This document shows, piece by piece, positions 27,897 through 29,140 of a DNA stretch of 64,000 bases. How positions within the stretch are numbered: the first letter of the stretch is position 1; each line of letters begins with the position of its first letter. The position numbers and the translations under genes are program-made. The stretch lies in sequence record OR699282.2; one strand, 5' to 3'. The DNA comes from Escherichia phage BAU.Micro_ELP-22. The notes under the pieces are model-generated. The model saw only the letters and a list, made by a program, of their open reading frames with translations, was not told where the DNA came from and ran no database searches.

Positions 27897-29072
27897 CTAT
27901 TCTGGTAAAATCATTTTCTTCATTTTAACTTGTTGTGTACCTGAACTCTGTTCCTGGAACATAGAACCACTACCACACCAGTACACCTCATTTGCCCCCA
28001 CTAATGCGTATAACACACCGGAACCACCTTGTACTGAAAATGCATTAACATCTGGTGCAATATCCATATCCTCATATTGTACTTCGTGATAATACGATCT
28101 TTCAGCAGCACTCGTTACAGGCCACCCAAGAGGAACTCCACCACCACATGTATAAAGTTTACCATTTTGTGTCATTGCCATTATAAAATAGTTCAAACTT
28201 CTATTATTCATCGAGGCAGCATCTGGTACAATCCCACTAATTGCAGGAGTATCACTAAATGGACTCATAATAAAACTAGTACTGCTATTACCAATACCTA
28301 AACAATAATCAGTATTCGTCCCGGCATTATATACTACAATATTACCACCAGATGATGTTAGTACTGAAGTTGTCGTTGAAGTACATGAAATACCGATAAC
28401 ACTTCCAGATATATCTGTACTTACAGTAAATTTACTAAGACTAGAAGCAGCAGTCCCCAAGTTTCTGTTAGCGTTATTACCACATCTGTAGTACTGGTTA
28501 TTTTTTGAATAGTGGAATGATCCAGCACCAGAAGCACTAGCTACTATAGTAACATCAGAATCAATCTTAATCGGTGTCGATACTGTACCAGTAACACCTA
28601 ATTGACCACCACCATTACGACCTATACCATATAAATCACCGTTGCTTAACAAAATTAATATAGCACCGTTACTATCCGTAGTTTCTGTAGCAGCTATATC
28701 AATCACCGTACTAAGTGATGGTATGGTACTTAATATAGATGTAATATTAGTCCACCCGGGAACTGGTGATACAGATACACCGACATAATTCATTTGACCA
28801 GCTAAGTAAAATTCTCCGTCAGTCGTAAGTATAATTGTTGCTGCCAAGAAACACCAAACATTAGAAACTTTATATGGACACTGTACCCACCCATTTTGCA
28901 CAAACGCAGTGCTATCATTTCCTAGCATATAGTTTGCACCTCTTCCACGTAGATATAAGTTGCCACTATCGAATAACATACCAACGTGACTAATGGAAGT
29001 ACTAATCTTTCGCACTACACTGGGAGCAGGTGCAATATTCCCGTACTTAACCATTCTTGCAAAAGGTAACAT
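27897..29072 (-). CDS. RCC1-like repeat protein, leader-peptide family
   Basis: Start set at internal MLPFARMVKYGNIAP (SD AGGAGGGAAT); ORF-track upstream extension runs through the promoter cassette. Confidence 0.75.
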   Translation of the reverse strand: MLPFARMVKYGNIAPAPSVVRKISTSISHVGMLFDSGNLYLRGRGANYMLGNDSTAFVQNGWVQCPYKVSNVWCFLAATIILTTDGEFYLAGQMNYVGVSVSPVPGWTNITSILSTIPSLSTVIDIAATETTDSNGAILILLSNGDLYGIGRNGGGQLGVTGTVSTPIKIDSDVTIVASASGAGSFHYSKNNQYYRCGNNANRNLGTAASSLSKFTVSTDISGSVIGISCTSTTTSVLTSSGGNIVVYNAGTNTDYCLGIGNSSTSFIMSPFSDTPAISGIVPDAASMNNRSLNYFIMAMTQNGKLYTCGGGVPLGWPVTSAAERSYYHEVQYEDMDIAPDVNAFSVQGGSGVLYALVGANEVYWCGSGSMFQEQSSGTQQVKMKKMILPE

Positions 29073-29140
29073 ATTCCCTCCTTTATTCATTATACTATAT
29101 TTAATACAAATAAGAAAGCCAGTACAAAGTACTGGCATAA
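29060..29140 (-). promoter_or_regulatory. conserved 5' cassette of RCC1 family: terminator hairpin GCCAGTAC-N3-GTACTGGC, TATAAT, SD
   Basis: Near-identical ~80-bp copies upstream of 8 of the 11 genes (ends near 30360, 31166, 32428, 33638, 36030, 37200). Confidence 0.6.

Follow-up and report, generated by a model that had tools for sequence, protein, structure and literature searches.

The RCC1-like gene array and its 5' cassette

A stretch of 64,000 nucleotides from Escherichia phage BAU.Micro_ELP-22 (record OR699282.2; the window) was analysed, which by megablast belongs to an Asteriusvirus-type jumbo coliphage related to 121Q, PBECO4, E9.1, JP4, phAPEC6, G17 and others. The minus strand of the window carries, at 24300–37140, an array of 11 tandem head-to-tail genes, and the subject of this work is the composite sequence unit, here called the cassette, that occurs in full or in part at their 5' ends. 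The array is flanked by plus strand genes that are 98.5–99.4% identical to those of the relatives, where flank sequence is present. In 5' to 3' order on the minus strand, the genes are labelled H, G, A, I, B, E, C, Y, J, D and K. A scan for the start motif ATGTTACCTTTTG(C/G)AAGAATG located starts at 37140, 35959, 34748, 33568, 32357, 31094, 30285, 29072, 27885 and 26695, and the eleventh start, at 25452 on the same strand, is a diverged ATGCTACCCTTTGGAAGAATT. The 11 products share the N-terminal sequence MLPF(A/G)RM..YGN.

An earlier note, made from the sequence of this DNA, described the genes as eleven RCC1 paralogs, which is right for most of them. Nine of the ten genes scanned match RCC1-like propeller families in Pfam (RCC1, RCC1_2 or WD40_RLD), with repeat matches above the cut-off for most paralogues; K was left out of the scan, and its orthologues are annotated as RCC1-like in E9.1 and 121Q. 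Gene E (31094–30357), in contrast, is glycine-rich, has no Pfam match and is not of the RCC1 family; its homologues elsewhere carry PF21722. The other ten genes are taken as RCC1-like, and two of these, J and K, are interrupted by frameshifts. K (25452–24300) is split near 25240 into open reading frames (ORFs) of 74 and 298 residues, with the same frameshift in the window, E9.1, 121Q and slurp01. J (27885–26708) stops after 269 residues and continues as about 370 nt of out-of-frame propeller remnant; this interruption is found in the window, 121Q, G17, JP4 and phAPEC6, and the 269-residue product, gp007, was detected in phAPEC6 virions. Judged from these sequences, the interruptions are conserved and are not sequencing errors, with a pseudogene, a split gene or a programmed frameshift as candidate explanations.

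A repeat search reveals 10 copies of a 78-nt unit, which comprises the Shine-Dalgarno (SD) sequence and the 5' coding sequence (CDS), and 6 copies of a 115–120-nt unit that also includes a hairpin. The intergenic unit consists of the hairpin GCCAGTAC-loop-GTACTGGC, a T-run, TTAAATATAGTATAAT and AAAGGAGG. When the eleven starts are aligned from -110 to +90, a single continuous conserved block is seen, which begins at the hairpin, takes in the T-run, TATAGTATAAT and AAAGGAGG, and ends near codon 15. Its order is ATGCCAGTAC-loop-GTACTGGC, TTTCTTATTTGTA, TTAAATATAGTATAAT, GAATA and AAGGAGGGAAT, followed by a CDS that begins ATG TTA CCT TTT GCA AGA ATG GTT AAG TAC GGG AAT ATT GCA CC, and near-identity extends to about +45 of the CDS. 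Because the block spans the hairpin through about codon 15, the identity is not limited to the SD sequence and start codon. The hairpin and the 27-mer spanning promoter and SD each have a chance expectation of 0.00 in shuffled sequences, and neither has a copy beyond the array within the window.

The full cassette precedes six genes, G, I, B, E, C and Y (ATG at 35959, 33568, 32357, 31094, 30285 and 29072), where the intergenic distance is 70–72 nt. The copy on which the earlier note was centred, at C|Y (29028–29142), has its hairpin at 29118–29136, followed by the T-run, TTAAATA, TATAAT (29089–29094), AGGAGG (29077–29082), ATG (29070–29072) and conserved codons to about 29028. At H|G (35915–36030), the hairpin lies at 36003–36027, followed by the T-run, TATAAT at 35977–35982, the SD, ATG at 35957–35959 and conserved codons 1–15. 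The A|I cassette (33524–33638; hairpin 33614–33632, SD, ATG 33566–33568) has the -10 variant TATAAC at 33585–33590, whereas TATAAT is found at I|B (32313–32428; hairpin 32404–32422, TATAAT 32375–32380, SD, ATG 32355–32357), at B|E, ahead of the glycine-rich non-RCC1 gene (31050–31166; hairpin 31141–31159, TATAAT 31112–31117, SD, ATG 31092–31094), and at E|C (30241–30356; hairpin 30329–30351, TATAAT 30302–30307, AAGGAGGG, ATG 30283–30285).

The remaining five junctions carry parts of the cassette, all likewise on the minus strand. The first gene, H, has the promoter and SD part only (37096–37172): TAAATATGATATAAT at 37158–37172 with the extended -10 TGATATAAT, then AAAGGAGG, ATG at 37138–37140 and the conserved 5' CDS, with no terminator hairpin. 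Genes A, J and D have only the SD and conserved 5' CDS. G|A (34704–34756) is a coupled junction with an 8-nt spacer, AGGAGG and ATG at 34746–34748 and has no hairpin or promoter; Y|J (27841–27896) is coupled through an 11-nt spacer, with AGGAGGG and ATG at 27883–27885; and J|D (26651–26707), with AAGGAG and ATG at 26693–26695, is preceded by the out-of-frame J remnant. D|K (25408–25525), with an intergenic distance of 73 nt, is degenerate: a variant hairpin at 25498–25520 (GCCAGTGC..GTACTGGC, with one G·U pair) is followed by a T8 run, CCTAAATATAATAAC, GGAGG and ATG at 25450–25452. Here TAAATA is kept, TATAAT is lost, and the start of K has synonymous changes (CTA CCC).

Alignment and folding thus bear out the anatomy that the earlier note had read from the sequence, namely a hairpin with U-run, TATAAT, a strong SD and about 50 nt of conserved CDS, and the positions that it gave for the copies were all right. 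Its count of eight cassette-bearing genes out of eleven holds if the six full units are taken together with hairpin-less H and degenerate K, but only six units are complete. Gene 34748 and the block 27897–25526 had been described as without the cassette; indeed 34748, 27885 and 26695 have only the SD and 5' CDS.

Conservation and exchange of array units

Among the eight intact propeller paralogues, the gene bodies are 21% identical in amino acid sequence and 40% in nucleotide sequence, versus 76 and 81% for codons 1–17, in agreement with the earlier description of conserved 5' ends on diverged bodies. The noncoding intergenic unit is nearly invariant between copies. Gene arrays of jumbo phages have been attributed to tandem duplication in publications (PMC5646251; PMC7247149), and the repeats might be ascribed to a recent event of this kind or to misassembly of short reads. 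However, bodies of 21% identity mean that the duplications are ancient, which rules out recent duplication as the source of the cassette identity. The repeat of about 115 nt is shorter than a sequencing read, and sub-orders of genes are reproduced in independent isolates. Body divergence and the array orders given below effectively refute an artefact or a recent duplication, and we give it almost no credence.

Across ten genomes, codons 2, 3 and 4 are TTA, CCT and TTT in 115, 115 and 114 of 115 genes, respectively. The same residues are encoded by CTA CCC in the decayed K and by ATA/TTA, CCA/CCT/CCG and TTT/TTC in two distant lineages, a 361-kb metagenomic phage (L011; ENA ERZ28586991 scaffold_3, 1–14910) and a contig of a distant jumbo phage (L012; 3934–12294). 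Since synonymous sites are identical in the 115 genes yet vary in K and in the distant lineages, selection on the protein explains the peptide and not the DNA identity, and homogenization between copies is therefore required.

A different source of this identity would be selection on the mRNA, with the segment from the SD to about +45 acting as an unstructured initiation region or as the site of a translational regulator. The block of 5' conservation does start with a very strong SD, its extent coincides exactly with that of the initiation region, and codons 2–7 are invariant at synonymous sites in the 115 genes. In L011 and L012, however, paralogues of a single genome use different synonymous codons for this peptide, which indicates that the long-term target is the protein sequence and not the RNA. 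An RNA element also leaves the identity of the spacer between hairpin and promoter, and the shuffled adjacencies described below, unexplained, and we consider it quite improbable.

In a search of 50,697 phage records, the 70-nt noncoding unit was found at 279 places in 35 records, all from Asteriusvirus-like phages, with no match among the other phages. Each genome has 3–12 copies (most have 6–12), matching the number of array junctions.

In none of the 36 related records does megablast coverage of the 13-kb array exceed 55%. Arrays were taken from nine relatives and cut at the shared start, and the bodies were clustered at an identity of at least 88%. The ten arrays contain 38 unit types, and their 113 junctions represent 74 distinct adjacencies, with seven different predecessors for gene B and six different successors for C. 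In every array all units have a single orientation. The order H G A I B E C Y J D K of the window compares with H Q G A I F B E C L D K in E9.1, F M A I B E Z C L J N K in 121Q, R G A Aa F M B E L S J D O in G17, G A I F B P C Ae U K in PBECO4 and, for the start of the array, F H V W G A D P X B T C in WPEC3. The sub-order H-Q-G-A-I-F-B recurs in E9.1 and slurp01, which are independent isolates from different continents. Between arrays, whole units have been inserted, lost, replaced or transposed.

For each pair of arrays with a gene in common but a different neighbour next to it, an identity profile was drawn up. At these discordant junctions, identity of at least 90% extends across the upstream 3' end and the cassette and collapses at +20 to +50 in the next CDS; leftward, it collapses at -60 to -70, which is the upstream stop codon. 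Gene H of the window differs from that of E9.1 at 14 positions, all within -57 to +36, with none from +37 to +1110, and the window H has taken up the ARMMNYGN version typical of B and F. Where E9.1 has I-F-B, the window and 121Q have I-B, and the SD spacer of the remaining I|B cassette is of the F|B type (GGAGGAATTT) in the window and of the I|F type (GGAGGGAAAT) in 121Q, which indicates two different resolution points. In G17, the F|M junction matches F|B of E9.1 as far as about +45, beyond which the sequence is that of M. The variants of codons 5–12 (ARMVKYGN, ARMMNYGN, GRMLKYGN, VRMFDYGN and others) are independent of orthogroup: H, M, F and A each have two to four of them in different phages, and VRMFDYGN predominates in WPEC3 and CMSTMSU across eight orthogroups. 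Junctions without hairpin and promoter also switch partners, the same 3' end of L, Y or Ac being followed by D, J, S or Ad; hence the SD and 5' CDS, about 55 nt, are sufficient.

The conserved 5' ends had been proposed in the earlier note as homology arms for cassette exchange, and this idea is supported by ten arrays that differ by whole units, by homology that ends at the cassette edges and by conversion tracts inside the cassette. On these sequence comparisons we hold shuffling and conversion at the cassette with high confidence. Intragenic recombination was rejected as the chief source of diversity; internally mosaic units number only 9 of 123, mostly K/O and divergent alleles such as Y. 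Gene Y (29072–27897), which lies downstream of the C|Y cassette, is present in none of the other nine arrays. It belongs to orthogroup L as a divergent allele (75–89% by quarters) and is one of the few intragenic mosaics, and its first 100 nt or so match gene Ac of JP4.

It could also be argued that functional constraint suffices, each part of the cassette being under purifying selection while the array varies by unrelated illegitimate duplication and deletion, with no role for recombination. The skeleton is kept in the distant L011 and L012 (CAGTAC/GTACTG stem, T-run, TAAATA, TATAAT-like box, SD and M[LI]PFxR..YGN), and the first gene, H, keeps promoter and SD without an upstream paralogue, as would be expected. 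Constraint alone does not account for synonymous and neutral spacer positions that are identical among paralogues with saturated bodies, yet differ between lineages, nor for the confined tract of 14 differences in H, which is otherwise 100% identical over 1.1 kb. The chimeric junctions, the 74 adjacencies that all break at cassette edges and the small share of mosaic units likewise speak against it. We regard constraint without recombination as unlikely.

Predicted expression signals and the N-terminal peptide

The RNA hairpins have predicted folding energies of -12.5 to -15.9 kcal/mol (z scores of -2.8 to -4.4), with a stem of 8–10 bp followed by a U-run directly upstream of the promoter, and ARNold terminators are annotated at the corresponding junctions in phage G17. 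The hairpin and U-run form a predicted intrinsic terminator, and we have moderate confidence in the terminator and promoter roles. Changes in the stem are one-sided and G·U-compatible, apart from a single compensatory change of CG to UA.

Outside the array, the palindromic core CAGTAC/GTACTG, with the ScaI site AGTACT in it, is found again at 23620–23645, 44248–44340 and 46317–46356. These CCAGTAC..GTACTGG-like hairpins are ordinary terminator-like hairpins, so this type of stem is general to the genome and not specific to the cassette. Within the array, the loop between the 8-bp inverted repeats is present in both orientations, with counts of 27:2 for CTTGA/TCAAG, 8:2 for TCTG/CAGA, 4:3 for AAA/TTT and 3:1 for TCAA/TTGA (for example in the hairpins at 29118–29136 and 31141–31159 and at the same junctions in relatives). 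At the orthologous B|E junction, the loop is AAA in the window and 121Q and TTT in E9.1. Such reverse-complement pairs are small hairpin-flanked inversions and are taken as a sign of DNA-level activity of the palindrome.

The four loop pairs raise the question of a site-specific system, in which the hairpin would be an attC-like or shufflon-like site for a dedicated recombinase; an imperfect palindrome is present at every cassette boundary, and the gene content is cassette-like. The mapped crossovers, however, fall 3' of the hairpin, within the SD spacer and 5' CDS, and the hairpin-less junctions L|D, Y|J, L|S and Ac|Ad change partners too. The units have one orientation in all genomes, and similar hairpins outside the array are predicted to act as ordinary terminators. 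In the published annotations of relatives, no genes for an integrase, for lysogeny or for a transposase are reported (PMC13070987), with no whole-window protein scan made here. With crossovers outside the hairpin, recombination at hairpin-less junctions, no inversion of units and no integrase reported in relatives, an integron- or shufflon-like system is very improbable.

The -10 element of the array cassette is a perfect TATAAT, and the best -35 at a distance of 17 nt is TTCTTA, which matches at three of six positions. Extended -10 elements of the TGnTATAAT type are found in gene H and in several L011 and L012 copies. TAAATA is the sole element present in all lineages and in the decayed K cassette, and it resembles the T4 late promoter TATAAATA. 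Asteriusvirus-type phages encode their own sigma factor (PMC7247149; PMC13070987). On its sequence, the candidate classes for the promoter are an extended -10-like TATAAT and a T4-late-like TAAATA core. Unlike the array cassette, true TTGCAA/TTGACA-17-TATAAT promoters sit elsewhere in the window, and the array promoter would represent a class distinct from the sigma70 type found at 43–50 kb, plausibly middle or late.

The conserved 5' CDS encodes a peptide, or tag, that is also conserved at the protein level. Homologues of gene C with 41–68% identity retain M[LI]PF[AV]R[MIV]xxYGN. L011 has an array of at least 14 genes, all starting MIPF(A/V/T)(R/K)..Y(G/A)N, whose products include a Kelch-type propeller, a Laminin_G_3 protein and two proteins without a Pfam match. 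Most of these genes are coupled by 8–13 nt, and four of the junctions have their own version of the cassette: GGTCAGTAC-N7-GTACTGGCC, T-run, GTTAAATACATGTATAAT and AAAGGAGG. L012 has eight genes, with RMLEYGN in all eight. The tag M[LI]PFxR..YGN is therefore common to RCC1, glycine-rich, Kelch, LamG and other proteins. Homologues of the glycine-rich gene E in other phages begin MLELL or MIELL and not MLPF, which indicates that the tag is exchanged as a module.

The AlphaFold model of C (mean predicted local distance difference test score (pLDDT) 90, predicted template modelling score (pTM) 0.87) is a seven-bladed RCC1-like propeller that starts at residue ~22, and a Foldseek search with this model finds UVR8, RPGR and RCC1 with template modelling (TM) scores of 0.65–0.77. 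Residues 1–20 form a low-confidence short helix and a proline-rich linker outside the propeller. A role of the peptide as the strand that closes the propeller as a 'velcro' was ruled out; the helix is outside the fold, and the peptide also heads non-propeller proteins. Position 9 of the tag varies between K, N, D and E, and there is no conserved Glu cleavage motif.

In phAPEC6 virions, electrospray ionization tandem mass spectrometry identified six array proteins, gp003, 005, 006, 007, 009 and 010, by 1–4 peptides each (PMC7247149, Table 1); the JP4 proteome supplement gave no hits. The phAPEC6 study suggested a role in the inner body and also reported unexplained hair-like fibres on the head and sheath (PMC7247149). 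With modest confidence, the tag may serve a common function in virion incorporation or docking.

Interpretation and comparison with known systems

We consider it likely that the cassette is a composite of a functional skeleton and an exchange site homogenized by recombination. Each array gene would be a self-contained module, with a four-part cassette as its 5' boundary: a terminator hairpin and U-run that would end the upstream transcript, a putative promoter without -35, TTAAATA-N3-TATAAT, a strong SD, and 12–15 codons for the peptide M-[LI]-P-F-x-R-x-x-x-Y-G-N, followed by a proline-rich linker. Selection would keep this skeleton for autonomous and similar expression of all paralogues; uniform expression had been proposed in the earlier note. 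Through the common N-terminal address or docking tag, binding domains that are otherwise unrelated would enter the virion. The copies would be held near-identical, synonymous and spacer positions included, by frequent homologous recombination and gene conversion, and the ~115 bp of identity would be the preferred crossover site for inserting, deleting, replacing and moving whole genes between and within close phages. The earlier note had missed the protein-level tag on non-RCC1 domains, the recombination of coupled junctions through the SD and 5' CDS alone and the missing -35.

Several points weigh against this reading. A sigma70 scan makes no call at the cassette promoter because the -35 is weak, and the 5' untranslated region would be only about 10 nt if TATAAT serves as the -10. 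Stem covariation, as evidence for an RNA structure, equals that of shuffled alignments and is uninformative within the genus because the stem is almost invariant. A literature search found no transcript-end, promoter or reporter data for any Asteriusvirus, so that promoter and terminator activity is predicted only. The mass spectrometric support from virions is weak, with 1–4 peptides for each protein and a single relative as the source. Some recombination is intragenic (Y, K/O), and within identical stretches crossover points are unresolvable to an exact position. Tag similarity is 0.784 within genomes versus 0.769 between genomes, a small excess over all pairs, and lineage-specific tag variants could reflect co-evolution with a docking partner instead of gene conversion.

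The closest parallels are found in T4-type phages. The promoter-early stem-loops (PeSLs) of RB49 and phi1 are repeats of ~100 bp with a promoter and stem-loop, and most indels that separate near-identical T4-type phages are due to recombination between these repeats (Arbiol et al. 2010, PMC2839356; Comeau et al. 2014, PMC4122927). Like the array cassette, they are ~100-bp composites of a stem-loop terminator, promoter, SD and start codon at gene boundaries in hyperplastic regions. In both systems, the repeats delimit the indels and replacements that distinguish near-identical phages, each moved gene carries its own expression signals, and a stable stem-loop, predicted as a terminator or attenuator, is associated with the promoter. 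However, there is no sequence homology between the two. PeSLs have sigma70-consensus -35 and -10 elements, whereas the array cassette has no -35 consensus; their stems are G/C-rich and lie within or next to the promoter, whereas the array stem is of another type and position. PeSLs number about 50 per genome over several regions and precede unrelated ORFans, whereas the array cassette has 3–12 copies per genome in one array, reaches ~45 nt into the coding sequence and heads genes of a single functional class. The array cassette thus works like PeSLs but is not a member of the PeSL family. A genome-wide PeSL-like regulatory motif was ruled out, as the cassette is array-specific and a different PeSL-like class is found at 43–50 kb.

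At the internal-protein (IP) loci of T-even phages, locus-specific PeSL-like repeats have been proposed to confine the shuffling of >30 encapsidated IP variants (Repoila et al. 1994 and Comeau et al. 2007, as summarized in PMC2839356). The array likewise has locus-restricted promoter and stem-loop repeats at a locus whose content is hypervariable between close relatives, and both encode many (>30) unrelated protein variants, which are packaged in the virion at the IP loci and are candidates for packaging in the array (six proteins, with 1–4 peptides each, from phAPEC6). Mullaney and Black are said to have found in 1996 that the T4 IP products share a short N-terminal capsid-targeting sequence (CTS) of about 10 residues, which has its counterpart in the 12-residue peptide of the array. 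The differences are that the array belongs to another phage lineage with unrelated sequences, that its tag has no similarity to the T4 CTS, and that the CTS is removed by the prohead protease after a Glu, whereas the tag has no conserved Glu site. The array cargo, moreover, consists of 25–45-kDa binding domains (RCC1, Kelch, LamG and glycine-rich). By analogy, the best reading of the array would be a locus-specific counterpart of T4-type PeSLs and T-even IP loci. The cassette is a new locus-specific variant of the T4-type promoter/terminator shuffling cassettes, with a protein-tag module added.

Phages with multiple receptor-binding proteins (CBA120-like phages and the Klebsiella jumbo phages RaK2 and K64-1) carry exchangeable receptor-binding proteins with conserved N-terminal anchors. 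They resemble the array in having a conserved N terminus and a variable C-terminal binding module, several paralogues per genome, and exchange at the boundary between the conserved and variable parts. Their anchors, however, are folded domains of ~100–300 residues on trimeric beta-helix fibres or spikes, whereas the array shares a 12-residue peptide on predicted monomeric propellers, with conservation that extends into noncoding DNA. Integrons are similar in that promiscuous gene cassettes, separated by imperfect palindromes, are arranged in one direction. In contrast to these, each array unit would have its own predicted promoter, crossovers occur outside the hairpin and hairpin-less junctions recombine, and annotations of the relatives report no integrase, within the limit on protein scanning given above.

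No description of the cassette or of the tag was found in the papers on 121Q, phAPEC6, JP4, Sharanji and fEgEco12, which mention only tandem duplication and 'DNA condensation' proteins. The latter annotation was given to the array products without evidence, and the present analysis suggests that they are interchangeable binding modules rather than DNA condensers. The array is the most variable locus among jumbo coliphages that are otherwise about 99% identical and are candidates for therapy. Autonomous modules, a portable tag that is also found on Kelch, LamG and glycine-rich proteins, and exchange at a defined cassette would turn the vague notion of tandem duplication into a testable mechanism of modular evolution and would extend the PeSL and IP-locus principle beyond T4-type phages. 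In practical terms, the locus might offer a natural insertion site and a tag for engineering virion-associated cargo in jumbo phages.

A bolder proposal, which we put forward only tentatively and would not yet favour, is a 'plug-and-display' (or plug-and-inject) platform of RaK2/121Q-type jumbo phages. Here the 115-bp cassette would give any ligand-binding domain its own transcription unit, an address tag that docks at one common virion site, and homology for mobility. The docking site could be, for example, the hair-like fibres on the head and sheath, or the inner body. If so, the locus would be a recombination-driven library for host range or counter-defence, equivalent to an integron without an integrase.

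A second, unrelated cassette is found on the plus strand at 43072–49688 in at least 10 copies, which start at 43072, 44358, 44818, 45135, 45818, 46378, 48141, 48609, 48925 and 49638. It consists of GTACTTGCAA-17-TATAAT followed by a G/C stem-loop. More fully, the sigma70-consensus promoter is AAAGTACTTGCAA-N17-TATAAT-GTTTTACAT, to which several copies add a G/C stem-loop (e.g. GGGGAATAGTTCCCC), followed by the SD and ATG of small ORFs. T4-type PeSLs have just this build, so a further hyperplastic region of the phage seems to contain early cassettes that are genuinely PeSL-like. The same part of the window contains a perfect 77-nt tandem duplication (46604–46680 and 46681–46757), which overlaps the start of the ORF 46692–47258, and a tract of 8-nt-period repeats (GGATGGCT/AGACGGCT-like) at 43500–43627 in an ORF-poor stretch. 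Divergent from the start of the RCC1 array, about 25 small tandem paralogous ORFs of 59–77 residues, with the pattern MN.HKE(F/Y)Y...L(I/V)(F/Y)(R/K)Y, occupy 37244–42447 on the plus strand, and their number varies among the relatives.

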